A DNA stretch of 64,000 nucleotides from a bacterium (GTDB taxonomy: Bacteria; Patescibacteriota; Minisyncoccia; JAUYLV01), in the NCBI GenBank assembly GCA_030649025.1, contig JAUSGO010000028.1, forward strand, positions 1,074 through 65,073, given 5' to 3'. Under the pieces are notes generated by a model, which did not search any database, was not told the origin of the DNA, and worked only from the letters and a program-made list of their open reading frames with translations. The position numbers were made by a program, and so were the translations under genes. The stretch's first letter is position 1, and each line of letters starts with the position of its first letter. This document shows, piece by piece, positions 2,459-28,523 of the stretch.

Positions 2459-3103
2459 TCATTCTATAATCTGCTCCGCAACCACCACGAGACGCTGTTT
2501 TGTAGAGAAAAGCGGTGAGCAGGTGATGAGGGTAATGATGGATTTTTCCGATGGGGCGACGACCGAAAAATCGTTAGGTTCAATGATCTTTGTTTGGGCA
2601 ACTTTATATGTATAGACCTTCCCCTGCCAGCGAGCGGACAGCGTATCCCCCAGTTTCAACTTGTCCAAACTGTAAAACGTCGTGTTGTTCGGCGGTAGGT
2701 AGCGGAAGCGATGACCGAATACTACGGTGTTGGAACCCTTCTTTGGCGTAGACGTTCCGGGGTAGCGCCATGCGCCATACAGCAATGCGCCCGCATCTTT
2801 CCCTTCCACGATAGGCACCGACACGCCTATTTTTTCAATAAAAAGACGATTATCGTCTGCTGGCTTTGACCGCGGAGTCGGGGTCGGCGCGGGAACGGTT
2901 GAGTCAGAGCCCGTCGCGCCCGGCGCGATCTCTTCAAGGATGGCGTCTTTGGCAAGCAAGTCATCGGCATCCTCCACATATTCGGAAAGCTGTTTGGCAT
3001 CTGAAAAAAGTATCGGCACGAATGGAAAAAGCGCTCCCAAAAGAGCTATAAATATCAGGGTGCATCCTGCTCCTATAAGCGCAATGGACCGCTTTCTTAC
3101 CAT
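2459..3103 (-). CDS. sortase-family transpeptidase
   Basis: N-terminal TM anchor; conserved His (VVFGHRFRY), catalytic Cys in TLITC motif (ITLITCSP) and downstream Arg (KQRLVVVA) in sortase order. Confidence 0.75.
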   Translation of the reverse strand: MVRKRSIALIGAGCTLIFIALLGALFPFVPILFSDAKQLSEYVEDADDLLAKDAILEEIAPGATGSDSTVPAPTPTPRSKPADDNRLFIEKIGVSVPIVEGKDAGALLYGAWRYPGTSTPKKGSNTVVFGHRFRYLPPNNTTFYSLDKLKLGDTLSARWQGKVYTYKVAQTKIIEPNDFSVVAPSEKSIITLITCSPLFSTKQRLVVVAEQIIE

Positions 3104-3145
3104 GTGCGCATTATAACACGACGGGTCCGCGATTAACTATACAAA

Positions 3146-3176
3146 ACCCCGCCGGAAAGGCGGGGTTTTGATTTTG
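3146..3176. terminator. rho-independent terminator downstream of the surface-protein gene (minus strand)
   Basis: Hairpin aaaaccccgcc-ggaaa-ggcggggtttt flanked by T/A runs. Confidence 0.5.
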
Positions 3177-3193
3177 GTTTTTGCCGATGAGCG

Positions 3194-5050
3194 TTACACG
3201 CCTGTGTTGCCGAAAAATTTATTTGCAAGTTCCGGCGAGATGAAAAGCTCTTCAATGCGCGACGGCATGATGCGTGCGCCAAGCGTGATAAGCAGAAGCC
3301 CTGTTGCAGCAAGTGCTATCATGAACGAGAGATAGATGCGGTCGAACATGAGGAAGCCCGCCTGCGGAAGTTGCGTATCGGCTGCACCAAGCACCTGGCC
3401 TTCAGTAGAAGCGCCCGCAACGGTCGGCGTAGGCGTGGGAGCTGGCGTCGGGGTTGCGGTTGGTCCGCCGCCGCCTCCGTTGGTTACCGTAACATTTGCT
3501 TGCGCAAGAATGGCCGAGCTATAGAAGGAGCTGGTCACCTGGGCGTTTATGGGATAGGTCCCCGATGAGACGCCGCTGCCCACATTCATGTTGAAGTTGA
3601 ATGATTGCGAAGCGCTCGGAGCAAGAGAAGATATTGTGGGGAAGGTTTGGGAGCCGGAGCTGTCGGCCATTGCCATACGCACGAATGGCAGGACAAACGT
3701 CTTTGCGGTGCCGCCCTCCGGGAAGCTGAAGCCCGCAGGAAGCGTAACCGTAATTATCACGTTGCTGTCAGAAAGGTTTCCGGTATTGTTCACGGTCACC
3801 GTACCCTGGGACTGTCCTCCGGCATTCACCGTTGAAGGATTTGCCGAAAGCGAGAGATTGAGAATGACCGCACTACCGCCTCCTCCACCGCCGCCACAAT
3901 TCGACTGACAACCGGGAGTAGGCGTGGGTGTAGGTTCGGGGGTTGGGGTTGGCTCTGGAGTGGGTTCCGGAGTAGGTTCTGGGGTTGGCTCAGGCGTAGG
4001 AAGAGTATTTACTGAAATATCAACACCGTCGTTGTCGTTGCTGTTATTATTATCAAATTCTGTTGCATCTGCCGAAGCGGTATTGGTTATGGCTTGGCCA
4101 CCAGTTCCGCTGTTGACCGTAACGGTGATGGTTAGAGTTGCAAACACGGTGCTTGCCAGAGAACCCACCGTCCATATACCAGTAGCGCCGTTGTAGCTTC
4201 CCTGGCTGGCGCTTGAAGAAACGTACGTCACGCCGGTTGGCAAAATGTCGGTGACCACAACATTGGTGGAGTTGTCCGGACCACTGTTGGTGACTGTAAC
4301 GGTATACGTTATAGTTTGGCCCTCATCTGGCGTTGCGTCGTCAACCGTTTTGTCGGTTGCAAGATCCGAGATCGACTCATAACATTTGAGATAATCTTGG
4401 TTGTAATTGTTTGAATTTGCCGAGGTTGCGAAGAATTTTGCGGTGTTCAGTGAAATTCCTGACCCCGTAAGCTGGGCTTTGGGAATTGCCCAATCAACAA
4501 AGTATAGACCTCCACCCGCCGAAGTTGCCTGTGCGTGTGTTGAGGCCACATCGCTCCAAAGCAGAGTATCCGCCGGATCATTGAATATCGATGGGCTAAA
4601 GTCTACGGCAGTTACCGCGGGGCTATTCTGCCATATTTCAACCTTGTCATCCTTGCCGTTAAGAGCAAGGAGGTATTGGTAGGCGGGTAAAGTGGTTTGC
4701 ATCAAAACAACCCAGGAATGATTTTTCCAACCGCCTCCATTATCGATAGGATTGCCATTATCGATAGGATTGCCATTAACTCTCTCTCGGAAGTAAAAAT
4801 AACTTGCGTCTTCAGCAAAACCGACCGCAGGATTGCTGGTATCACCAATTAAATCTCTGTGGTCGGTTGGGGGCTCCGCAAGGTCAGTTGAACATTGCGC
4901 CGGCGACGTCCAAGATGTCGGCCAAATTGGAGCCGCTTGGGCCGCCAACGGCACCGACTGAAACACCATAGACATGGTGAAAACCGCCGTGTAGAACGCT
5001 ACGAACGGGCGGATAATCCTGGCCCTCTTTTTTGTCGTGAAATAGTACAT
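3194..5050 (-). CDS. cell-surface protein: signal peptide, DUF11-type conserved repeat domain, PEPT tandem linker, poly-Gly run, C-terminal LPQAG + hydrophobic segment (candidate sortase substrate)
   Basis: 618-aa ORF; TITYTVTVTNSGPDNSTNVVVTDILPTGVTYV (DUF11-like); (PEPT)n; GGGGGGG; C-terminus QLPQAGFLMF...hydrophobic...R. Confidence 0.7.
   Translation of the reverse strand: MYYFTTKKRARIIRPFVAFYTAVFTMSMVFQSVPLAAQAAPIWPTSWTSPAQCSTDLAEPPTDHRDLIGDTSNPAVGFAEDASYFYFRERVNGNPIDNGNPIDNGGGWKNHSWVVLMQTTLPAYQYLLALNGKDDKVEIWQNSPAVTAVDFSPSIFNDPADTLLWSDVASTHAQATSAGGGLYFVDWAIPKAQLTGSGISLNTAKFFATSANSNNYNQDYLKCYESISDLATDKTVDDATPDEGQTITYTVTVTNSGPDNSTNVVVTDILPTGVTYVSSSASQGSYNGATGIWTVGSLASTVFATLTITVTVNSGTGGQAITNTASADATEFDNNNSNDNDGVDISVNTLPTPEPTPEPTPEPTPEPTPTPEPTPTPTPGCQSNCGGGGGGGSAVILNLSLSANPSTVNAGGQSQGTVTVNNTGNLSDSNVIITVTLPAGFSFPEGGTAKTFVLPFVRMAMADSSGSQTFPTISSLAPSASQSFNFNMNVGSGVSSGTYPINAQVTSSFYSSAILAQANVTVTNGGGGGPTATPTPAPTPTPTVAGASTEGQVLGAADTQLPQAGFLMFDRIYLSFMIALAATGLLLITLGARIMPSRIEELFISPELANKFFGNTGV
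3903..4012. repeat. tandem 12-nt repeats encoding [10 protein letters not shown] linker
   Basis: Visible ggttc(t/c)gg(g/a)gt(t/a)gg periodicity; translation (minus) [24 protein letters not shown]. Confidence 0.7.
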
Positions 5051-5243
5051 ATATGTAAGGCTTTTTGCCTTAAATAATGATAATTTTAATTAAGGATTCA
5101 GTTTAGCATCGATATCAAATTCTGTCAAGTTCTCCAAAGGGAAAACGGTAAATACTGAATCAAGTCGTAAGCGCCTTAAAGTATATCACAGATAGCGTTT
5201 TTAACAGAAAAAGCCGTATGTGGAAAAGGAGTTGATGTCTCAT

Positions 5244-7019
5244 TTATGCCAAGCGGCCGGATTGGAAATGCCGACGGAAACGTCTTTCGCGAAATCTAAT
5301 GATGCTTACTTTCGCAAAAAGCCGGAACTCGGCACGCAAATTATACAGGCCAAGCTGTTTGGCTTTCAGCCATTCTTGAGCGCGAATGCGCATGACGGCT
5401 TTGTGGTACCGGTATTCTGCCGGTATTTCGTCAATGCGATACTTGCGGATAAAAAAGCTCGTGCGGGCCAAAAGTCTTTGCATGCGACTTCGCGCGTTGG
5501 CGACAAAAAGTCCCGCAAAAACCGCAAGCCCGGAAAACGCAACTCCCGCCGGAATTGCCGCAGCAGCAGTACCCGTGCTTATGTCAAAGACGCCAAGCAC
5601 TTGCGGAGTTGGATTGGTTTTTGGAGGATTTGGGATTGCCGCGGTTGACGCGCCAAGCACTTGCGGAGCAGGCACGCATGGAGCGGAAGAGATGCGAAGA
5701 ATGGATGTATCGGATGCGGGAGGGTAGGCATTGCCGAAAAGGAGAGACGCGGTGTTCACCAACGGAGCGGTGTCCGCGGTGAGGCCGGCGGGTATTACTA
5801 CGGAAAACGAAACCGTAAATGAAGAGCCCGGAGTAAGCAAAGGAAGCGCGAGCGAACCGTCTTCCATCGGGTCGGACGATGAGGCGCCATTCAGCATGGT
5901 TGAACCCGGAACGACAATAAGGGGAGACGGAAGAACATCTTGGAGTGTTACGCCGTTGAGGACGTTCGGATTTGCCTGGATGGCGGTGAGAAGGAATTCT
6001 ACGGTCTCGCCGGGAGAAGCCGCGACAACTTCTCCGTAATCAGCCTGATTGCAGGATATATTACGTAGAGCATTGCCAATTCTTGCCGGTGATGCAGTTC
6101 CCCCACCTCCTCCGCCTCCACCACCGCCCCCACCCCCACCTCCACCTCCTCCGCCAGGAGGCGGTGTTGGGGCTGGAGTAGATGTTGGCGTTGGAGTGGG
6201 CTCAGGAGTAGGCGTCGGTGACGGTGTCGGCGTTGGGGTCGGTGTAGGCGTCGGAGTAGGAGTCGGCGTGGGAGTAGGCTCCGGTGTAGGCGATGGAGTT
6301 GGAGACTCTGATGGAGTCGGGGTCGGAGTTGGGGATTCGCTCGGGGTTGGAGTCTGGGTTGGTGTAGGCGTGGGTGAAGGCGTGGGTGAAGGCGTCGGAG
6401 TAGGTGTCGGCTCTGGCGTTGGAGACTCGGACGGTGTTGGGGTAGGTGATGGAGTAGGTGATGGAGTAGGTGTGGGAGTAGGAGTAGGAGTAGGAGTAGG
6501 TTCGGGTGTAGGAGTCGGCGTGGGAGTAGGCTCCGGTGTAGGCGATGGAGTTGGAGACTCTGATGGAGTCGGGGTCGGAGTTGGCGAAGGCGTTGGTGTC
6601 GGGGTGATACCGCAGTTTTGTAGGTCTACTGCCTGGGGATTATGTAAAGAAAGGGTTGTCCCATCAATGGTCACGGTGCCGTCGCTTACGTCGTATATCG
6701 TTGCGCCATATGGCGGGTAATCCAGATAATGCGCAGTATCACCCGTGTGCTTGCTGAACAAAGCCGTGCGCACGGTGCCGTTTAGTCCGTAAGAAACGAA
6801 GCCGTAGTCTGATACGGAATCTGGCAGATGCACAACCACAAAGTGCACTTCAGCGGAGGTGCTTTCCCCGGTGCACTCAACGTGGCTCAAATTAAGCTGC
6901 ATTTCCCGCTCTGCCATTGCCGCAAAGAAAGAAACGAACGAAAACAGGACAACAAAGACGCCGGCCAATACGCGTCTTAAGAAGTTATTGTTTTTGTGAA
7001 AGCCTGTGAAGACATTCAT
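5244..7019 (-). CDS. cell-surface protein with very long Pro/Thr/Ser/Glu repeat linker, 19-residue poly-Gly tract, DUF11-like C-terminal domain and C-terminal hydrophobic anchor
   Basis: 591-aa ORF; signal/TM at N-terminus; [16 protein letters not shown]... repeats; G19; ...[24 protein letters not shown] hydrophobic anchor followed by an unusually long (about 80 aa) basic tail. Confidence 0.65.
6098..6600. repeat. low-complexity coding repeats (poly-Gly then PT/SP dipeptide repeats with a higher-order about 250-bp duplication)
   Basis: ccccc/cctcc runs 6098-6165; gg(a/c/t)gt(a/c/g)gg 6-nt periodicity; near-identical segment ggctccggtgtaggcgatggagttggagactctgatggagtcggggtcggagttgg at about 6279 and about 6530. 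Confidence 0.8.
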
Positions 7020-7054
7020 ATATGTAAGAAAAAAATTCTATGGGTTTTTTGGAA

Positions 7055-7972
7055 TTATTCAACGCGATCTGCCCGCACGGCTATCCTCTGCCAGTTCGTG
7101 CCCACCGGCCAGCAGGATACCAGAACAATACCCTCTCCGTCGAGACTTTGGAGAACGTCCTCCTTCGCATTTTTTGGATCTATGATAAAATGGTCACGCA
7201 CCCGGTAGTGCAGTATCTTGCCGGACATTTCTATGGCTATCGGATCTCCCGCCTTAAGTTTATCAAGCAGGGCGAAAACCGACCCATATTTTCCACGATA
7301 GGTCATTGGAGCTGAGCTGTGGCCCAAGAGGACCGATGTTCCACCGCTTCCGATCTCCGCGCTTCCCGGCCAGCGAATAACCCCCCCTCCCAGATCTTTG
7401 TTGATGGTTTTCAAATTAAAAGCAGTCTCCACAATGGGAGCGGAAACTCGTAAGCTCGGTATCCGTATACGCGGAGTTTTTGGAATTGCCGCGGCCTCAA
7501 TGAGTTTCTTTTCAACAGGAGACGTTTCGGAAGCGCCCAATGGGGCGGATGCATGGGAAGATAAGGCTGGCGGCACACTTTGAACCTCATAGTTTTCTCC
7601 TGCCGTAGCAAGACCCATCAACGATTCTTCAATATTCGCCGCAAGCGGCAGAAGTGTAGGTGTTTTTTTAATTTCAAATTCATCTCTGGACACCAGCGCG
7701 GTAAGTGCGGGCCAATTTTCGTGTAAATAATAGGAAGCGCGAGCGGCGTAAGAACGGCCCGAAGCGTAAAAGGATAGCGCCAACATCAAAAAGCCGGATG
7801 CCAAAAGGATCTTCAGAAAGTTTTTCCGGTTCATAAGCGAATGTTGATGCCGAGTCAATTCGTCGCTAATGATGCCGTCTCTAAGATAGATGCGGCGCGT
7901 TCCAAATTTAAAGACCGAGATTGCTGGGGTCATGCTATGTGGGGCTCTGATTTTATGACTATAATGGTACAA
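7055..7972 (-). CDS. second sortase-family protein (divergent)
   Basis: TM anchor (LKILLASGFLMLALSFYA), conserved His (VLLGHSSAP), Cys (VLVSCWP) and Arg (NWQRIAVRA) in sortase order; alternative start at 7834 (MNRKNFLKIL...). Confidence 0.6.
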   Translation of the reverse strand: MYHYSHKIRAPHSMTPAISVFKFGTRRIYLRDGIISDELTRHQHSLMNRKNFLKILLASGFLMLALSFYASGRSYAARASYYLHENWPALTALVSRDEFEIKKTPTLLPLAANIEESLMGLATAGENYEVQSVPPALSSHASAPLGASETSPVEKKLIEAAAIPKTPRIRIPSLRVSAPIVETAFNLKTINKDLGGGVIRWPGSAEIGSGGTSVLLGHSSAPMTYRGKYGSVFALLDKLKAGDPIAIEMSGKILHYRVRDHFIIDPKNAKEDVLQSLDGEGIVLVSCWPVGTNWQRIAVRADRVE

Positions 7973-8065
7973 GAGTCCGAAAGTACATTCTATAATAGTC
8001 TTAATTCTTTGTCAAGTTTCCTCGAGTAAACACATTATTCAACAGGATTGCAAAGTAATTAAAAC

Positions 8066-8094
8066 TTGACATTTTTTTATGAGCGTGTTAACAT
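8066..8094 (+). promoter_or_regulatory. sigma70-like promoter upstream of pilB
   Basis: TTGACA - 17 nt - TAACAT about 65 nt upstream of start codon. Confidence 0.4.
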
Positions 8095-8157
8095 GGCATT
8101 TCATCTCATTCGGTACCCAGGGGTGGCCGAAAATCTTGTAAAAACATCAAATTACAT

Positions 8158-9714
8158 ATGGAAAAGGTTCAGATAAAAATCAATAAATCCGCTTCCGTGT
8201 CCGGGAAGGATGCGGCACTCCCGAGCCTTCCTGCTAGCGCGAAGAACGTCGTTCCCAAAAAGGAAGTTTTGGAACTGATACCCGTGTCCTTGGTGAAAGA
8301 ATTCGGTGCGTTTGTTTTTGACGCGTCAGAAAAAGAAATAAAGATCGCCGCTCAAGATCCAAGCCAACCGGTCCTGCAAAAATTCGTGTTGGAACGCTTT
8401 GGAGAAAAAGCGAAATGGTTTGGCGCATCCGAAGAGGATGTCCAATTCATCATCAAGCATTATCCACGGGACTTCAAAGACGAAATTTCCCGGCTTACCG
8501 AAAATCCCAATGTTAACGGCAACATCGTGGAAATTGTCGACCGCATCATTGCTTACGCCATTGCCGAAAAAGCAAGCGATGTGCACATTGAGTCGATGCG
8601 CGGCCAGACCCTGGTGCGCTTCCGCGTGGACGGCTTGCTTCACAAAGTGCTTACCATGCCTCAAGACGTGCATCAAGCCATGATCGCGCGCTGTAAAATT
8701 CTGGCAAATTTGAAAATAGACGAATACCGCCGCCCGCAAGACGGCAGAATCGAGCTGGAAACTCCTCCCAATACTTCGCTACGCATTTCCATCGTACCTA
8801 CGCTTCATGGAGAAAAAATAGCCATGCGTATTCTGGACGACTCGAACAAAAATCTCTCGATGGAGAATCTCGGTTTCTCAAAAAGCCACCAAGAAATACT
8901 TTTACGCAACATTGAAAAGCCATTTGGCATGATGGTGACTTCAGGCCCCACGGGGTCGGGAAAAACCACAACGCTTTACGGCCTGTTGAGCCTTCTGCCG
9001 AAAGACGGCATAAACATCTCCACGCTCGAGGACCCCATTGAGTACGCTCTCGACGGCGTCAACCAGATCCAAATAAATCCCCGGGTGGACCTTACCTTCG
9101 CTTCCGGACTCAAGGCACTTCTGCGCCAAGACCCGGATATCATTATGGTAGGAGAGATCCGCGATTCGGAAACCGCGGTGATGGCGGCAAATGCCGCGCT
9201 CACGGGACATATGGTGCTTACCACGCTTCATACCAACGATGCGCCATCGGCCGTAACAAGGCTTCTAGAAATGAAGGTGGAGGATTTCGTGGTAAGTTCC
9301 ATCGTCAACCTGGTCATCGCGCAACGGCTCGTGCGGAAAATTTGCGAATCCTGCGCCGAAGAACGGAAACTCGACGAAATTCTTTTTAAAAAAATTACGG
9401 AGCGCGGAGATGTCAAAGAGGCCCTGGAAAGCATGGGGCAGAGCATGGACCAAATTCGCGAGCGTACATTCCGCGTCGGCAAGGGCTGCGATGCGTGCCT
9501 CGGAACGGGATATGTTGGACGCGCCGGAATTTTTGAATTACTGGAGCTTAATAAAACCATACACGACCTTATTCTGGAACACGCGCCATCGGAGCGCATC
9601 AAAGAGGTAGCAATAAAAGCAGGATTCAAAGACATGATTGCCGACGGCCTGGAGAAAGTTTTTTCTGGCGTGACCACGTTCGATGAAGTTCTGCGCACAA
9701 CCCGCAACGTGTAA
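8158..9714 (+). CDS. pilB: type IV pilus assembly ATPase PilB (GspE/PilB family)
   Basis: Walker A VTSGPTGSGKTTTLY, Asp box, Walker B/His box, tetracysteine motif CESC...CDAC; N-terminal GspE_N-like region. Confidence 0.9.
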   Translation: MEKVQIKINKSASVSGKDAALPSLPASAKNVVPKKEVLELIPVSLVKEFGAFVFDASEKEIKIAAQDPSQPVLQKFVLERFGEKAKWFGASEEDVQFIIKHYPRDFKDEISRLTENPNVNGNIVEIVDRIIAYAIAEKASDVHIESMRGQTLVRFRVDGLLHKVLTMPQDVHQAMIARCKILANLKIDEYRRPQDGRIELETPPNTSLRISIVPTLHGEKIAMRILDDSNKNLSMENLGFSKSHQEILLRNIEKPFGMMVTSGPTGSGKTTTLYGLLSLLPKDGINISTLEDPIEYALDGVNQIQINPRVDLTFASGLKALLRQDPDIIMVGEIRDSETAVMAANAALTGHMVLTTLHTNDAPSAVTRLLEMKVEDFVVSSIVNLVIAQRLVRKICESCAEERKLDEILFKKITERGDVKEALESMGQSMDQIRERTFRVGKGCDACLGTGYVGRAGIFELLELNKTIHDLILEHAPSERIKEVAIKAGFKDMIADGLEKVFSGVTTFDEVLRTTRNV

Positions 9715-9733
9715 TATTATTTTTTGAAACCAC

Positions 9734-10945
9734 ATGTCGTCTTTCGCATATAAAATCGTCACAAAGGAAAACAAGGTCCTTGAAGGAGAAGTGGATGCGC
9801 CGTCAAAAATAAAAGCCGAAGAAAAGTTCAGGCAGGAGGGTTCAACGGTGCTTTTCGTATCTCCGAAAAAAACATCCTTGTTCGCGAAAGAACTGTCCAT
9901 GCCCTCATTCGGTTTTCCCATCACCGAGCGCATATTTTTTTTCAGGAACCTTGCCACCATGCTCGGCGCAGGCCTTTCCTTGGCAGATGCCATGCGCGTA
10001 TTGGAAGAGCAGGCCAGAAGCAGCGGAGTCAAAAAAGCCATCGTAACGATCATCCATGACGTTGAGAACGGGAGACGGTTTTCGGACGCCATGCGGAAAT
10101 TCCCGAATTTTTTCTCGGATTTTCTTATTGAGGCGATACACGTGGGAGAACTCACGGGGCAGCTTGCCGATACGCTCGATCGCATATCCACGGACCTCGA
10201 GCACGACCACGATTTGCGTCGAAAGGTTCAGGGGGCCATGGCGTATCCATTGGTGGTGCTCACGGTTATGACGGGCGTAGTAATCACGCTTACGGGTTTT
10301 GTTCTGCCGAAGATTGCGGACCTTTTCAAGGAGCTCAATGCGCCGCTCCCAATGCCGACACGAATTCTTCTTGGGGGAAGCGGATTCATCCGCTCCAGTC
10401 CCTTTGCGGTTATAGGCGTCTTTGCGGCGCTGGCCGTAGGACTGTTCTTGCTCTGGAAAAATAAAAAGGGAAGATATTTCATCCATTATGCGTTTTTAAA
10501 AATCCCGGTCTTCGGCGACATGCTAAGGGAATTTAATTTGGCAAGATTTTTCAGGGCTCTTGAATCGCTTTTTGCAAGCGGCATTTCGCTCGTACGTTCC
10601 GTAGAAATCGCCAAAAAAATCCTTAAAAATGACGTATACCGGCAGGCTCTCGATGGCGCGCATCCCATTCTTATACACGGCGCGCCGCTTTCGGACGCGT
10701 TGAAGCTTCATCCGTTTCTTTTTCCTACGCAAACACGGCGCATTATAGAAGTCGGGGAACGCACGGGAAAGCTGGAGGAAATTTTCAGGCGTGTCACCTC
10801 GTATTACGAACGCGCCCTGCATCATAAAACCCAAATGCTCGCCTCGCTCATTGAACCGGTTCTTATTGTATTTATCGGCGTAGTCGTTGGGGGACTCGCG
10901 CTGTCTGTTTTTCTTCCCATTTACCAGGCAACGAGCGTGTTTTAA
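9734..10945 (+). CDS. pilC: type IV pilus inner-membrane platform protein PilC (GspF family)
   Basis: Two GspF-like repeats with conserved ...EVGE(R)TG(K)LEE... motifs and 3 TM blocks; immediately downstream of pilB. Confidence 0.85.
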   Translation: MSSFAYKIVTKENKVLEGEVDAPSKIKAEEKFRQEGSTVLFVSPKKTSLFAKELSMPSFGFPITERIFFFRNLATMLGAGLSLADAMRVLEEQARSSGVKKAIVTIIHDVENGRRFSDAMRKFPNFFSDFLIEAIHVGELTGQLADTLDRISTDLEHDHDLRRKVQGAMAYPLVVLTVMTGVVITLTGFVLPKIADLFKELNAPLPMPTRILLGGSGFIRSSPFAVIGVFAALAVGLFLLWKNKKGRYFIHYAFLKIPVFGDMLREFNLARFFRALESLFASGISLVRSVEIAKKILKNDVYRQALDGAHPILIHGAPLSDALKLHPFLFPTQTRRIIEVGERTGKLEEIFRRVTSYYERALHHKTQMLASLIEPVLIVFIGVVVGGLALSVFLPIYQATSVF

Positions 10946-10955
10946 GAATTTTGGC

Positions 10956-11417
10956 ATGGCCAGAACACATTTAAAAATTTTTACTCCGCAACGGGGATTC
11001 TCCCTTATTGAAACCCTCGTTGTTGTGGGCATTTTAAGCATCATCGCGGTTTTTGCGCTGGGATCGCTTCGCGGCGTGCGCTCGCGCGCGGCACTAAGCG
11101 ACGGACAAATACTCATTGTCCGGGCCCTGGAGGAAGCGCGCAACCGCGCCGTAACGGGCGCGGGAACATCGGACCATGGCGTCCACATCGAGCCGGGAAA
11201 GATAGAAACGTTCGAGGGCTCCGTATACATTCCCGGTAGCGGCGTAGAGTCATTTCTGCCTCCGGGTGTCTCGACAGACCAGGCAAATGCCATTGTGATA
11301 TTCAAAAGACTGGTTGGGCAATCAAGCGCAAACCCCACCATAATGCTTTCTAATGTTTCGGGCGCAACATCAACAGTTGCGGTAACATTGGACGGCGCGA
11401 TCATCCCTAGCTTATAG
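10956..11417 (+). CDS. prepilin-type N-terminal cleavage/methylation domain protein (pilin/pseudopilin)
   Basis: Class III signal: ...QRGFSLIETLVVVGILSIIAVFA; start chosen at ATG 10956 (ORF extends to 10887 overlapping pilC). Confidence 0.7.
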   Translation: MARTHLKIFTPQRGFSLIETLVVVGILSIIAVFALGSLRGVRSRAALSDGQILIVRALEEARNRAVTGAGTSDHGVHIEPGKIETFEGSVYIPGSGVESFLPPGVSTDQANAIVIFKRLVGQSSANPTIMLSNVSGATSTVAVTLDGAIIPSL

Positions 11418-11458
11418 CTGATAGCTTTTAGGGTTTAGACTCATCACGAAATCAATTC

Positions 11459-11983
11459 ATGAAATTTTCCAAACCTATTAGCTATAAGCTAAAAGCTAAA
11501 AGCTCCAAAGGCTTTGCGCTTGTGGAAGTTATTATCGGCATGGGTATTGCCGCATTTCTTCTCACCACATTCTCGTCAATTGCCCTGCAGAGTAAAAAGG
11601 TAAGCCGGGCAAATATGCGCAACTTTAAGGCAGCGCTGTATCTTCGCGAAGCTATAGAAGTAGCCAAAGACCTGGAACAGACGAACTGGGCAAGCTTTGC
11701 AAACCCGCTCTGCGTCTCGACGCCATATTGCCATCCGCAGGCGGCCGGAAGCACGTGGACCCTTGCCGGAGCAGAAGAGCTGCTCGACGATGGCATGTTT
11801 GCGCGGACTCTTTCCGTCTCGTCCGTATATCGAGATCCTGTAACAAACGCTATCGATCTTGCCGATCCGCCAACGGGCGCGCTTGACCCGAATACAAAAA
11901 AAGTGACGGCAGCGGTGAGGTGGGATACCGGGTATGTCGTGCGCACCGGAACGCTTGAGGCATATATATATAACATGCCATGA
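11459..11983 (+). CDS. prepilin-type pseudopilin
   Basis: KGFALVEVIIGMGIAAFLL class III signal peptide motif. Confidence 0.7.
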   Translation: MKFSKPISYKLKAKSSKGFALVEVIIGMGIAAFLLTTFSSIALQSKKVSRANMRNFKAALYLREAIEVAKDLEQTNWASFANPLCVSTPYCHPQAAGSTWTLAGAEELLDDGMFARTLSVSSVYRDPVTNAIDLADPPTGALDPNTKKVTAAVRWDTGYVVRTGTLEAYIYNMP

Positions 11984-12468
11984 CCCTACCCCTTAACACC
12001 AAACAGCAAAAAAATCCGCGCAAGCTTGGATTCCAGTCAGGGGTAACCCTGCTTGAAGTTATTCTTGTCCTGACTATCGGTGTGGCTGTTGCTACGATGG
12101 TGACGCTTGTTACGTCCGCGGGCCTTAAAAATATCCGATCTGCAAAACGCCTTGAGCGGCTTCATGCAAACGCCGTTTTCACCACAAATGCCCTCACCTA
12201 CTGGATAAAACAGGGGGATTTGCTCACCGTAACTTCCACGACCGCTTTGAGAATAATCCTTCCGGATTCTTCCATAAAATATATTGAGAAATCCAATAAT
12301 CGTGTTACACTGGACGGCAACGCCATAACCACCGATGATGCCCAAGTGACCAATCTTACCTTTGCGCGCTTTGGACGCTCGGTCCGCTTCGGACTTTCGC
12401 TCAAAGCCCGGAATGCCCCAGAGACGCTTTCCGTAACCTCTACCGTAGCTCAAAGAAATTCTTTTTAG
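11980..12468 (+). CDS. prepilin-type pseudopilin
   Basis: GVTLLEVILVLTIGVAVATMV motif after short basic leader; 4-nt overlap with upstream pilin gene. Confidence 0.65.
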   Translation: MTLPLNTKQQKNPRKLGFQSGVTLLEVILVLTIGVAVATMVTLVTSAGLKNIRSAKRLERLHANAVFTTNALTYWIKQGDLLTVTSTTALRIILPDSSIKYIEKSNNRVTLDGNAITTDDAQVTNLTFARFGRSVRFGLSLKARNAPETLSVTSTVAQRNSF

Positions 12469-12483
12469 CGCTTCATTATATAT

Positions 12484-13572
12484 ATGAGCAAGAAACTCAA
12501 ATTTTCAAACAGGAACCCCGAACGCGGAGTCATCACGCTCATGGCGGTGCTTGGCGTGGGCTTGTTTGCTCTGGGTGCCGCCCTCACCATGGCAACGGGG
12601 GTCCTTTCGGAACTTGCGACAAACCAGGACACTGTTGCGGGAGACCAGGTTTTTTATACAGGCGAATCAAATGCGGGAGAGGGAGCCTATCAATACCTCT
12701 CCACCTCGTCGTATGCAAGCGTCGCGCCGACTCTGCTCAACGACACCTCTACCGGCTCCGTTGTAATCGTTCCCTTGGCATGGCCGTATGTTCGGGCTAG
12801 GGGTCACGCCGGAAACGGCACAACGCGCCGCATCGTGTCGCGCATTATCACCGTTTTTCCCGAGGGACAGGCTTTTGACTACGCAGTATATTCTAATGAA
12901 GAAATGAATTTCGGCGGCAATGCTACCGTGAACGGCGATGTGTATGCAACCGACGAAATCGATTTTACGGGTGCGAGCGCCGAAGTGAACGGCAACGCGT
13001 TCTCACCGGGGGATGTTGAAACGGATAATGTAAACGGTTTCTCGGTTACCGGCGTTGATGTTATTGAGCCTCCACGTATTTTTATTGAGCCTTACCGAGA
13101 CATGGCCATAGCCGCAGGAACCCATTTCACAAGCACCCCTCTGGCAAGAAGCTTTCTTAATAACAATATAACGCACAATATTGCCGTAGTGGTTGAAGAT
13201 ATCCCAGAACTTAAACTCCAAAATTCTACCAGCTCCACGGGAAGCCTTGTTACGTTGCACGACCTGGAACTTACGGGCGGAACCTACACCGCCGCAGGTG
13301 GACGGCCCGCTATTATTGTCTATGGAAACCTAAAAATCGCTGGCGGCACCACCATAAACGGCATTGTGTATGTGGAGGGTTCAACTACGTTCGGTTCGGG
13401 AACAAATACCATAAATGGCTCGCTCATTTCTGTCGGGGGCGCGAGCGTGGACGTAACGGGCAATGCCGTAATAAACTTTGATCCACAGTACGTTGCGGAT
13501 TGGGACTTGCTGCCGGGACTTGATACCTCTACCACCTCAACGCCGGAAGTGATTTCATGGGGAGAAGAATAA
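12484..13572 (+). CDS. pilus-associated large minor-pilin-like / tip protein (hypothetical), membrane-anchored, G/T/N-rich beta-rich repeats
   Basis: N-terminal hydrophobic anchor after basic leader (ERGVITLMAVLGVGLFALGAAL); last gene of pilin operon; no enzymatic motifs. Confidence 0.45.
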   Translation: MSKKLKFSNRNPERGVITLMAVLGVGLFALGAALTMATGVLSELATNQDTVAGDQVFYTGESNAGEGAYQYLSTSSYASVAPTLLNDTSTGSVVIVPLAWPYVRARGHAGNGTTRRIVSRIITVFPEGQAFDYAVYSNEEMNFGGNATVNGDVYATDEIDFTGASAEVNGNAFSPGDVETDNVNGFSVTGVDVIEPPRIFIEPYRDMAIAAGTHFTSTPLARSFLNNNITHNIAVVVEDIPELKLQNSTSSTGSLVTLHDLELTGGTYTAAGGRPAIIVYGNLKIAGGTTINGIVYVEGSTTFGSGTNTINGSLISVGGASVDVTGNAVINFDPQYVADWDLLPGLDTSTTSTPEVISWGEE

Positions 13573-17976: not shown

Positions 17977-18726
17977 TTATTTCACCAACGAACTAATGAG
18001 TGCACCAATGCCATAAGAGGCTCCGGCAGCAATAAGGCCGATAACGAGCATTTCCAAGCCGCTTTTAAGCCAGCCTTGTTTGGTGAGAAGTGTCCGCAGG
18101 GAACCTACAAAAAATAAGGTCGTGGCAGTTGAAGCAACGGAGATCCAGAAATCATGGCCGCCTGCGCCAAAGAGCACAAATGGGATGAGCGGAAGAGTTC
18201 CCGCAACGATAAACGCGACAAAAGTCACAACGCCATGAGACCATGGCGTCTCTTCGTTCCCGGTTATCACGCCATGCTCTCCTATCATCATTTCGTCTAC
18301 CCAGCGCTTTTTGTTGCCCGTGATGATCTCCACCGCACGCTCAAGCTCCACGCCAGAAAACCCCTTGGCCTGATACATATTACGAACCTCTTCCCGCTCT
18401 TCCTGCGGGAAGAGTTGTATTTCCATCTCTTCGCGCGCACGCTGACGCGCCTCGAAATCACGCTGCGACTTCATGCCAAGGTAGCTCGACATCCCCATAG
18501 AGATGCCATCGGCAATGACGTTGGCAAATCCGAGAATAACCACGATCTCCCGTGAAAGCGAGGCTCCTGCAACGCCGGCAACTATCGCAAATGTCGTGAT
18601 AATGCCGTCGTTGACGCCATAAATTGCATCGCGCAAATATCCCCCGCTCGTGGAGGAGTTTTCGTGACGCATATGTTTTTGCTGGATTTCATTCACCCCG
18701 TTAGATGTGCTAGATAATTCTTGCAT
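17977..18726 (-). CDS. VIT1/CCC1-family (vacuolar iron transporter-like) membrane protein
   Basis: LRDAIYGVNDGIITTFAIVAGVAGA... N-terminal and GIS(M/L)G.SSYLG motif; two hydrophobic halves separated by an E/R-rich loop. Confidence 0.75.
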   Translation of the reverse strand: MQELSSTSNGVNEIQQKHMRHENSSTSGGYLRDAIYGVNDGIITTFAIVAGVAGASLSREIVVILGFANVIADGISMGMSSYLGMKSQRDFEARQRAREEMEIQLFPQEEREEVRNMYQAKGFSGVELERAVEIITGNKKRWVDEMMIGEHGVITGNEETPWSHGVVTFVAFIVAGTLPLIPFVLFGAGGHDFWISVASTATTLFFVGSLRTLLTKQGWLKSGLEMLVIGLIAAGASYGIGALISSLVK

Positions 18727-27122: not shown

Positions 27123-28523
27123 TTACGTCCTCTCGGACGGATCATGGTGCGTAGCCGCCCACAGCCAGGCCCCGCAGCATATAAATAGTGTAAAGATGAA
27201 AATTGTCCACATCTGGCCGGTACTTGGCCGGATTTCGTTCTTCAAGTAAAGAAACCCACCCTGTCCGTCGTCACCCGACATGCTTACCCGCTTGAACTTC
27301 GTTGCCGGATTATCCGCTCCCCAAAGCACGCGCTGGATTGGGCCATATGCGCCGTCGGGTGGATAGTGAATGCCCTTGGCGTCTTTGCGGCTTGCTGGCG
27401 GACCTAAAAGCGTCGCGGCAGTAAGCGGCAGACCTTTAAGGCCATCACGCATCATCACAATAAACTTCTCATTTCCCAGCGGCATCCCGGTAAACGCCCT
27501 GCTCCAGGATACCGTCGCGCCATCAGCGGTGCCGACAAGAACGACAATGCCGTTTTTGGACAATGCGTCACTGCCATAAATACTTTTGTCCTGCCAGTGG
27601 GCTTTGAGCGCGAACACGTAGCGATCCGGATTTCTGGAGACCGCCTCGTCTTTAACGACAACCAGGTGCAGGTCTCCTTGCATTTGACTTCCGAGGTTCG
27701 CGTTCAGATATTCCAGCGCTTCCTGCCACGCGCGGCCGTCTTGCGGAAGCCAGCCAACGAAATAAACTTTGTCGGCGCGATAGAACGACTGAACGGTTCT
27801 GAACAGCATCGGTAAAAGCTTGCGCGACTGATAATCAAGGATATCGCCGGAAGATTCTTTCATCAGCGTATGCTCCGATGCCAAGATGTAGTTGACGTAG
27901 CTTCTCCGCGCAGTGACCGGACCGGGTCTATTTGCTTCGCAGCGGGCGCGCACCGCAACCCAGAACGGGGGCTCTCCCGTTCCGGCGCTCGAAATAACGT
28001 TCTGGGGAATAGGGGTTCCTGCGCGCCATTGGTGCGCTTGCGGGTTTTCTGGAAAAACATTCGTCGCAATAGTATAGCGCCCCAGCGTCGTATCCGCGTA
28101 AAAGTTATATTCGCGGTCCACATAGGGGCAGGAATGATAGCGGGTTTCCGGGCGGTAACAGGTGCTGCATGACGTATATCCGTTTTTGTCTGTCGTGCAC
28201 ATGCAATCATATGCCACCATCACGATATACGGATCGCAGTCGTACTCGTACCGGCATGGGCCGTCGCGAGTGCACTCTACATACTCCTTGACCGCGGCAA
28301 CTTCCCAGCCGTTCCAGTACTCCATAAACTTCAACTTGCTGTCTCTGGCCATCGTCCATCCCACCCAAGCAACCAATACGGCGGCTATGGGCGAGACAGC
28401 CATGCCGATGGCGTATTCGCGCCACGTAATGCGTGCCTCACGGTTTTGAGCTTCCAAAATCCATTTGATAAGAAGGCCCGCCAAGGCGGTAATCATGATC
28501 GTTGCCAAAATCAATGTCACCAT
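27123..28523 (-). CDS. hypothetical membrane protein with Cys-rich extracytoplasmic domain (TM at both ends)
   Basis: 466-aa ORF; N- and C-terminal hydrophobic helices; 12+ Cys clustered in first 150 aa (CTRDGPCRYEYDCDPY...CMCTTDKNGYTSCSTCY). Confidence 0.5.
   Translation of the reverse strand: MVTLILATIMITALAGLLIKWILEAQNREARITWREYAIGMAVSPIAAVLVAWVGWTMARDSKLKFMEYWNGWEVAAVKEYVECTRDGPCRYEYDCDPYIVMVAYDCMCTTDKNGYTSCSTCYRPETRYHSCPYVDREYNFYADTTLGRYTIATNVFPENPQAHQWRAGTPIPQNVISSAGTGEPPFWVAVRARCEANRPGPVTARRSYVNYILASEHTLMKESSGDILDYQSRKLLPMLFRTVQSFYRADKVYFVGWLPQDGRAWQEALEYLNANLGSQMQGDLHLVVVKDEAVSRNPDRYVFALKAHWQDKSIYGSDALSKNGIVVLVGTADGATVSWSRAFTGMPLGNEKFIVMMRDGLKGLPLTAATLLGPPASRKDAKGIHYPPDGAYGPIQRVLWGADNPATKFKRVSMSGDDGQGGFLYLKNEIRPSTGQMWTIFIFTLFICCGAWLWAATHHDPSERT

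Follow-up and report, generated by a model that had tools for sequence, protein, structure and literature searches.

The window analysed here is a 64,000-nucleotide stretch of a patescibacterial genome (assembly GCA_030649025.1, contig JAUSGO010000028.1, positions 1,074 to 65,073). Patescibacteria, the bacteria of the Candidate Phyla Radiation (CPR), are thought to live attached to hosts, and little is known about how their surfaces are decorated. We identified a cassette of five co-oriented minus-strand genes between 1298 and 7972, which encodes, in order, a sortase (srt2, 7055-7972 with the stop codon, 7058-7972 without), a 591-residue surface protein (P2, 5244-7019 with stop, 5247-7019 without), a 618-residue surface protein with DUF11/CLIPPER domains (P3, 3194-5050 with stop, 3197-5050 without), a second, 214-residue sortase (srt1, 2459-3103 with stop, 2462-3103 without) and a CAP-domain membrane protein (open reading frame (ORF) 1298-2449, feature 1301-2392). 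A gap of 35 nucleotides separates srt2 from P2. We think it fairly probable that the cassette consists of two independent sortase-substrate modules, srt1 with P3 (module A) and srt2 with P2 (module B), which anchor adhesin-like proteins and in which each enzyme has its own signal. The gene arrangement is not a product of chance, since the adjacency of sortase and substrate and the tail types both recur in dozens of independent metagenomic loci.

The preliminary description of this DNA had picked out the two sortase-family genes by the contexts of their catalytic cysteines, TLITC and LVSCWP, and hidden Markov model (HMM) searches confirmed both. srt1 scores 99.1 bits (2e-28) and srt2 72.6 bits (3.2e-20) with the Pfam Sortase model (cut-off 26.6), and the TIGR01076 scores are 88.5 and 45.0 (cut-off 39.35). 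srt1 carries a membrane anchor (3005-3085), the catalytic His in GHRF (H131, 2705-2716), the Cys in TLITCSP (C195, 2513-2533) and the Arg in KQRLVV (R204, 2483-2500). The corresponding parts of srt2 are the membrane anchor (7757-7819), LGHSS within LLGHSS (H218, 7313-7327), LVSCWP (C287, 7106-7123) and WQRIAV (R296, 7076-7093), with residues numbered along the ORFs. The srt2 ORF opens at a TTG codon at 7972, and the ATG at 7834 (MNRKNF...) is the more likely start.

Both enzymes, which are 31% identical to each other, align end to end to solved class C sortases with matching His-Cys-Arg positions, and these three residues do not vary across 46 aligned sequences (srt2, srt1 and 44 homologues). 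An AlphaFold2 (AF2) model of srt2 has an N-terminal membrane helix, a disordered linker of ∼65 residues (model residues 55-120) and a catalytic domain with a block-mean predicted local distance difference test (pLDDT) of ∼75-98. A Foldseek search with this model returned 138 PDB matches at E ≤ 1e-3, and the 50 listed are all sortases, class C first and then class E. The match to sortase structures has E = 1.5e-12, with a root-mean-square deviation of ∼2.2-3 Å over ∼145 residues for the best alignments. We conclude that srt1 and srt2 are true sortase-fold proteins with a catalytic triad at the sequence and fold level, the fold being predicted from sequence alignment for srt1 and from the AF2 model and Foldseek for srt2. 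Loss of the triad, which the preliminary description had named as the finding that would speak against its reading, was not seen at either level.

Assignment to a sortase class is less direct. Neither enzyme reaches the cut-offs of the NCBIfam class A-F models (NF0337xx, 140-166 bits); the best scores are those for class C (82.1 for srt1 and 55.0 for srt2 against 160), and class E gives 27.9 and 77.1 bits (cut-off 160). srt1 is identical to the NCBI protein MDO8558293.1, named 'class D sortase [bacterium]', a name that the class D models do not support (74.3 bits against 165 and 77.1 against 140). We found no DPW/DPF/DPY lid motif ahead of the catalytic domain in either enzyme, as judged by eye without a pattern search, and neither has a C-terminal membrane helix, both ending right after the Arg strand. 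Among 92 homologues of srt1, all those that carry organism names are Patescibacteria (Yanofskybacteria, Terrybacteria, "Patescibacteria group"). One sortase gene on a contig binned as 'Acidobacteriaceae' (L002:13253-13837) encodes Ser in place of the catalytic Cys (TLQTSYPLGT) and adjoins an LPRTG-ended relative of P3; possible explanations are a sortase that uses Ser, a paralogue without activity, or an error of sequencing.

P2 and P3 both have a hydrophobic N-terminal leader, ending in AQA or AMA, and a tripartite C-terminal layout of motif, hydrophobic helix and basic tail. A regular-expression search over both proteins found no LP.TG, in agreement with the preliminary description, and the PT linkers and poly-Gly runs reported there as common to both are indeed present (19 Gly in P2, 7 and 5 Gly in P3). 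The claim of shared DUF11 domains holds well for P3, at 139.7 bits (Pfam, 6.3e-41, two stretches) and 80.7 bits with TIGR01451. For P2 the match is weak, at 19.7 bits with Pfam, below the cut-off of 24.6, but 27.0 bits with TIGR01451, above the cut-off of 24. The C-termini had been read as carrying a single '[LI]P(Q/A)(A/G)G' motif; this did not survive, and we found instead that the signals of the two proteins differ and that each goes with a sortase clade of its own.

P3 begins with a hydrophobic signal peptide (4934-5050), followed by an N-terminal beta-sandwich (4361-4933), a CLIPPER/DUF11 domain (4007-4360), a PT linker with a Gly run (3872-4006), a second immunoglobulin (Ig)-like (DUF11/NEW3-like) domain (3479-3871) and a Gly/PT linker (3422-3478). 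The AF2 model has a pLDDT of 70.5, and its N-terminal domain has no significant fold neighbour in the PDB and no Pfam or NCBIfam match. This domain forms a conserved family: in a scan, with a five-sequence alignment, of a species-representative genome collection that does not include the genome of the window, the closest relatives were found in Gottesmanbacteria and Chisholmbacteria metagenome-assembled genomes, the best match being 61% identical. A domain corresponding to P3 residues 40-230 also heads proteins of 1900-3100 amino acids in Bacillaceae (Rossellomorea, Fictibacillus, Halobacillus, Sutcliffiella and others; L007-L033), at 29-36% identity and without sortase-type tails. Candidate isopeptide residues of the P3 CLIPPER domain, which by eye lie where the triad would be expected, are the K of DKTV, the D of VTDILP and the N of ITNTA; a PDB sequence search gave no usable alignment, and many DUF11 domains have no isopeptide bond (PMC12617251).

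The P3 sorting signal (3194-3394) starts with VLGA (3383-3394, VLG from residue 553) and continues with LPQAG (3356-3370, residues 561-565), which the preliminary description had also picked out. FLMFDR follows, then a membrane helix (3275-3337, residues 572-592) and a conserved 26-residue tail that starts at RIMPSR (RIMPSRIEELFISPELANKFF...; 3194-3274 with the stop codon). The C-terminal tail sequence is GQVLGAADTQLPQAGFLMFDRIYLSFMIALAATGLLLITLGARIMPSRIEELFISPELANKFFGNTGV, and the tail is identical in an independent assembly (Logan contig L001). Proteins that share the P3 N-terminal domain have LPRTG, LPQTG or LPATG at the position of LPQAG; a VLGA-like element immediately precedes this motif, and the gene just downstream encodes a sortase. 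In the neighbourhoods of the closest srt1 homologues (47-66% identity), each homologue has an upstream protein that ends in a P3-like module of ∼65 residues: VLGA, a spacer of 2-4 residues, LPx[T/A][G/S], F/M-x-x-x-D-[RK], a helix whose conserved core is ...TG..., ..LP.[KR], and a short conserved tail. The motifs beside these srt1-clade sortases are LPATG (L034), LPTTG (L040), LPNTG (L041, twice), LPEAG (L035 and L036) and LPETS (L043). LPDTG occurs with the same tail in P0089, whose genomic context was not looked up. In total, nine P3-type tails comprise five LPxTG, three LPxAG and one LPETS, and eight of them adjoin srt1-clade sortases. The three with LPxAG are the window P3 and its two nearest relatives (L035, L036). 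Because the homologous tails carry LPATG, LPTTG, LPNTG and LPDTG, LPQAG is, as judged from these alignments, a sub-lineage variant of LPxTG with one residue changed, set inside a distinctive extended signal. LPxAG is known as an occasional variant in staphylococci (S. aureus) and streptococci (S. uberis) (PMC3436756, PMC2657157).

Genes for a PMT-family protein O-mannosyltransferase adjoin srt1-clade sortases in L035 (2779-5384), where a GT2 gene lies next to it, and in L038 (1290-3179). In L036 the matching neighbour ORF (3325-4899) is truncated at the end of the contig and gave no Pfam match. These genes hint at possible O-glycosylation of the PT-rich linkers in the substrates.

P2 consists of a signal peptide (6912-7019), an orphan N-terminal domain, a PT-rich linker of ∼150 residues (6153-6608), a 19-Gly run (6099-6155) and a CLIPPER/DUF11-like domain (∼5685-6080). 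Two VLG elements are present (5652-5660 and 5592-5600, residues 454 and 474), and a PQVLG segment is duplicated in the tail. DISTG, the predicted sortase motif (5571-5585, residues 479-483), lies next, with its ISTG one residue before the membrane helix (5499-5567, residues 485-507), and the protein ends in an 84-residue basic cytoplasmic tail that starts at NARSR (5244-5498 with the stop codon). A word-index search with P2 lacking its linker found no homologues. An exhaustive HMMER search with the C-terminal half (residues 308-591) gave 466 hits at E ≤ 1e-3, and all four of these relatives that we looked up have precomputed CLIPPER/DUF11 hits.

Tails were counted in the 150 best cluster representatives of the 466 hits. 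A C-terminal helix is present in 98 of the 150, and 88 of the 98 have a TG no more than 16 residues before it. The most frequent class among the 88 is x[VI]xTG (n = 54), followed by LPxTG (n = 10), xAxTG (n = 8) and xPxTG (n = 7). The tail after the helix window has a median length of 30 residues in the x[VI]xTG proteins as compared to 12 in the LPxTG relatives. ISTG occurs exactly as in P2 in two relatives (P0284 and P0311), and the P2 tail aligns with a long-tail subclass, 'VLG..V.TG-TM-R.RE.KLL...YFK.K....LRFKK.Y' (TM, transmembrane helix). For P2 the most likely motif is (D)ISTG, which falls into an x[VI]xTG class that comparison of tails shows to be widespread. The preliminary description had favoured IPAGV (residues 489-493), which we rejected because it lies inside the hydrophobic segment (485-507) and has no conserved counterpart in the relatives; DISTG, six residues upstream, is preferred. 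A frameshift that hides an LPxTG in P2 was ruled out by translation of all three frames.

The x[VI]xTG tail class, as we define it, combines [VI]-x-T-G no more than ∼8 residues from a C-terminal helix, at least 16 residues of tail, and an adjacent sortase gene whose product carries GHSS...[ST]C[WY]P[VI][GN]T. P2 fits this definition, and its neighbour srt2 carries LGHSS and LVSCWPVGT. Scanning metagenomes with three query sortases, srt2 and two from Microgenomates, yielded 80 loci. The closest srt2 relatives (42-58% identity, signature GHSSAYPWYKGKYGSVFALL...SCWPVGT) adjoin proteins with QVATG, TVPTG, AVNTG and QVPTG, in which a helix and ∼30 residues of conserved tail come after the motif. 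Sampling from the sortase side (L046, L047, L049 and L050) and from the substrate side (L125, L126, L128 and L129) gave the same association of x[VI]xTG with srt2-clade sortases (35-58% identity). In the four loci chosen by substrate, the neighbouring sortase is each time of the srt2 clade: an ISTG protein precedes a sortase with LVTCWPIGT (L125), the sortase is a partial upstream ORF at the contig edge that carries LISCWPINT (L126), a single sortase accompanies four x[VI]xTG proteins (L128), and a CAP gene, a sortase and a VKTG protein follow one another (L129). Most sortases in the 80-locus scan are of a third kind, with TCWPP. They lie downstream of giant VLGAST.LPATGAN.W-helix-RRKY proteins or of QPDTG- or QPPTG-ended proteins, so that these Microgenomates-type enzymes adjoin (L/Q)PxTG proteins. 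With the srt1 clade as clade 1, the srt2 clade as clade 2 and the TCWPP enzymes as clade 3, x[VI]xTG is found in 11/13 motif-bearing neighbours of clade 2 sortases as compared to 1/29 for clades 1 and 3 (Fisher p = 2e-7).

The curated anchor models TIGR01167 and PF00746 detect the LPATG tail of a Microgenomates control (23.2 bits against 15.9 and 28.7 against 20). At E ≤ 10 they gave no match to the tails of P2, P3, two x[VI]xTG proteins and an srt1-clade LPATG protein. The signals are lineage-typical, as the preliminary description had suspected, and lie outside the curated LPXTG models, but they are not peculiar to this genome, being common to broad CPR-type groups.

Each of the three CPR signal classes (LPATG, LPx[TA]G and x[VI]xTG) has a VLG(A) element that precedes the sortase motif by 3-10 residues. 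Exact VLG within the 14 residues before the motif occurs in 17/54 x[VI]xTG representatives, against ∼0.004 expected per protein; the element could be an extended recognition element or a linker. In Microgenomates-type operons, a conserved ORF of ∼320 amino acids lies between the giant LPATG protein and the sortase (L065, L070, L079, L080, L085, L091, L093, L115, L118 and L120). Its product contains repeats of (V/I)LG(E/Q) and a C-terminal helix whose tail has KK, but no motif that resembles LPxTG.

The fifth gene of the cassette encodes, as the preliminary description had it, a co-oriented CAP protein with a PAT-rich linker (Pfam CAP, 70.6 bits, 2.7e-19). Its parts are an N-terminal helix (2231-2287), the CAP domain (1820-2185), the PAT-rich linker (1556-1816) and two C-terminal helices (1418-1477 and 1340-1381). 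CAP proteins adjoin CPR sortases of different clades (L040:5612-6526, L049:4394-5275, L051:1098-2426, L052:507-1820 and L129:2025-2987), often with a gap of 6-25 nucleotides. The same layout recurs (N-terminal helix, CAP domain, Pro/Ala/Thr-rich linker, two C-terminal helices), and a conserved tail, ...HQxKDLI...F(L/I)..IP, is also visible in L051, L052 and L129. A CAP gene lies within 5 kb in 9/91 distinct sortase loci, many contigs being too short to tell. It is possible, from this recurrence of neighbouring genes, that the CAP-domain membrane protein is an accessory factor of CPR sortase systems.

A consensus scan placed promoter-like sites upstream of srt2 (8015-7987), P3 and the CAP gene. 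The same kind of scan found a GC-rich 12-bp palindromic hairpin (CAAAACCCCGCC...GGCGGGGTTTTG; 3142-3170, strand not assigned) between the P3 stop and the srt1 start. These matches fit a scheme in which modules A and B are probably transcribed from separate minus-strand promoters. The hairpin may act as a partial terminator that attenuates read-through into srt1 and sets the ratio of substrate to enzyme. Divergent from the cassette is an operon that resembles those for type IV pili or a type II secretion system (8158-13572, plus strand), with a GspE/PilB ATPase, a PilC/GspF platform protein and several prepilin-like ORFs; the shared intergenic region (7973-8157) has promoter-like sites on both strands. 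Elsewhere the window carries ordinary chromosomal genes, among them those for Mfd, ComEC, RecG, RelA/SpoT and PrkA, and an Rfam scan of the window found three tRNAs only. A search of the 64 kb for other sortase substrates gave just two ORFs with TG before a helix, at the level expected by chance (17977-18726 and 27123-28523). The second (minus strand) encodes a 466-residue Cys-rich membrane protein without a Pfam match, which has two N-terminal helices and ends in ...IRPSTG-QMWTIFIFTLFICCGAWLWAA-THHDPSERT; its xPxTG-like layout is probably a chance resemblance.

In the mechanism that we propose, the P2 and P3 precursors would be exported by Sec and retained in the membrane by the C-terminal helix and basic tail. 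The catalytic Cys would attack the bond before the Gly, between A564 and G565 in P3 and between T482 and G483 in P2. An amine of a wall precursor would then resolve the acyl-enzyme, leaving the adhesin covalently displayed on a monoderm envelope. In module A, P3 would be a secreted fibrillar-adhesin-like protein with a beta-sandwich head, CLIPPER/DUF11 stalk domains and PT/Gly linkers, whose VLGA-x4-LPQAG-FxxxDR-TM-RxxPxR signal and conserved tail would be recognised by the adjacent membrane-anchored cysteine transpeptidase srt1. In module B, P2 combines an orphan head with a long PT linker, a run of Gly residues and a single CLIPPER-like domain, and its VLG-x3-ISTG-TM signal with a long basic tail would be recognised by srt2, of a distinct clade (GHSS...SCWP[VI]xT). 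A bolder version is more tentative, and on balance we lean slightly away from it: the srt2 clade would be a distinct sortase class largely confined to the CPR, with a motif that has lost Leu-Pro to become (V/I)-x-T-G within a larger signal (VLG, helix and a basic tail of 30-85 residues with a function of its own, for example in targeting or regulating sorting). The CAP protein would possibly be accessory, and the cassette would then hold two mutually orthogonal sortase-tag pairs.

Several points weigh against the two-module interpretation. The assignment of each enzyme to its substrate in the window draws on adjacency and on the pattern in relatives, and we infer cleavage, the scissile bond, the acceptor and wall attachment by analogy. 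Sortase clades were assigned by signature regular expressions, not phylogeny, and the samples are modest (nine tails for clade 1, 11 distinct adjacent pairs for clade 2). P2 is atypical of the x[VI]xTG class, with I in place of the commoner V and D at position -4. Its tail is the longest of the class (84 residues after a 17-residue hydrophobic window), and its N-terminal domain has no relatives detectable by word-index search. In addition, ∼2/16 other ORFs of the window have, by chance, a TG no more than 18 residues from a hydrophobic stretch at the C-terminus, and therefore the single P2 motif has weight only through its conservation in the family. A long conserved cytoplasmic tail is also unexpected for a segment that is merely cut off, and it may point to permanent membrane anchoring or a further function.

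That last point leads to one of three other explanations, in which P2 and the x[VI]xTG class in general are not sortase substrates but type I membrane proteins held permanently by the helix, with TG as a conserved juxtamembrane feature and a long cytoplasmic tail as the working part, for example in signalling or docking. The length and sequence conservation of the tails (median 30 residues, 84 in P2) and a motif without L-P agree with it, as does the nearest precedent, the NVQTG of C. difficile CbpA, which SrtB does not cleave in vitro (PMC4155245). We nevertheless consider it unlikely, given the T-G just before the helix in 88/98 helix-bearing relatives, the tight and specific linkage to one sortase clade when sampled from both sides, and the upstream VLG element, which is common to the true LPxTG tails of other CPR sortase loci. 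Far less credible is decay, by which P2 and P3 would be degenerating LPxTG proteins or assembly errors without a dedicated specificity. The lack of close P2 homologues by word-index search and the duplicated PQVLG segment could be taken that way. It is contradicted by the conservation data, with LPxAG recurring in the two nearest P3 relatives, x[VI]xTG in 54 cluster representatives, and the same P3 tail in the independent assembly L001; both ORFs are long and intact, with LPxTG in no alternative frame. We give it almost no weight.

The cassette could also be a pilus island, in which srt1, srt2 or both would build a covalent fibre from P2 and P3, beyond mere anchoring of monomers, by joining the motif Thr or Ala to a Lys of the next subunit. 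By sequence and by structure, the proteins that both enzymes match best are class C sortases, which polymerise pilins. The CLIPPER/DUF11 domain is of a CnaA-like isopeptide type that characterises pilins and fibrillar adhesins (PMC12617251), and P3 weakly matches the isopeptide-forming fimbrial domain TIGR04226 (24.4 bits, cut-off 30). The L128 locus, with its four x[VI]xTG proteins, resembles a pilus operon. Both enzymes, however, fall far under the class C cut-off (55 and 82 bits against 160). They show no DP(W/F/Y) lid motif by eye, the srt2 linker is predicted to be disordered, and the C-terminal membrane helix is absent from both. A YPKN-type pilin motif was not noticed in P2 or P3 by eye, and no pattern search for it was made. 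The signals of P2 and P3 differ, each being matched to a different sortase clade, and relatives of each clade usually have a single substrate (L034, L047 and L125). We rate polymerisation as improbable, about on a par with permanent anchoring, and retain the two anchoring modules as the preferred interpretation.

If this pairing of signals and enzymes holds, predictors based on LPXTG miss a large share of CPR surface proteins, and two added tail models would improve the annotation of CPR surface proteomes. One pair apparently uses a proline-free (V/I)xTG tag that seems to lie outside any curated database model. Natural co-resident sortases with non-overlapping motifs would bear on the evolution of sortase specificity, and such enzymes could provide orthogonal tags for protein ligation. 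Even so, the cassette extends a mechanism that is already well understood and does not amount to machinery of a new kind.

The closest general parallel is sorting by sortase A at LPXTG, where the enzyme is likewise an N-terminally membrane-anchored Cys transpeptidase with His-Cys-Arg. The substrates likewise have a signal peptide, motif, hydrophobic helix and basic tail, and the LPQAG of P3 is one residue off LPxTG. Departing from the LPXTG signal, that of P3 carries FxxxDR as a conserved insert ahead of the helix and ∼25 conserved residues in the tail, and that of P2 has neither L nor P; the tails (26 residues in P3, 84 in P2) are both unusually long, and TIGR01167 and PF00746 miss them while detecting the CPR LPATG control. 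As in class C pilus islands, the best enzyme matches being 8t28, 2xwg and 6bwe, the genes are clustered with surface proteins that have Ig-like isopeptide-type domains. Unlike class C, the scores are far under the cut-off, the lid motif (by eye) and the C-terminal anchor helix are absent, and there are two different substrate signals. The Pam pili of CPR bacteria are assembled by donor-strand exchange without a sortase (bioRxiv 10.64898/2026.03.03.709456); we set them aside as a match on this sortase-independent assembly, by description and not by sequence comparison. CLIPPER/DUF11 fibrillar adhesins (PMC12617251) share with P3, and more weakly with P2, a head, a CLIPPER stalk and a sorting signal. 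Unlike their tandem arrays, P3 has two DUF11 stretches and P2 one, and long PT/poly-Gly spacers replace the repeat stalk.

According to Meheust et al. 2019 (PMC6744442), over half of all CPR genomes encode sortases (family fam000526), which are nearly universal among the Microgenomates, and the TCWPP clade beside giant VLGAST.LPATG proteins fits that picture. The text consulted presents one sortase family without describing sorting signals, as compared to at least three clades here, each with a distinct cognate tail. A limited literature search found no description of the sorting signals of CPR sortases. Outside the CPR, class E sortases use LAxTG, and C. difficile SrtB uses (S/P)PxTG, with NVQTG also proposed (PMC4155245, PMC5118464). 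The present signals are like these in that motif positions 1 and 2 vary while T-G stays, NVQTG being formally x-V-x-T-G, and the fold of srt2 strongly matches class E structures as well. The NVQTG of CbpA is a proposed motif and a single contested case, without cleavage by SrtB in vitro (PMC4155245). Unlike it, x[VI]xTG here is the majority motif of a large protein class that has its own sortase clade and a long conserved tail.

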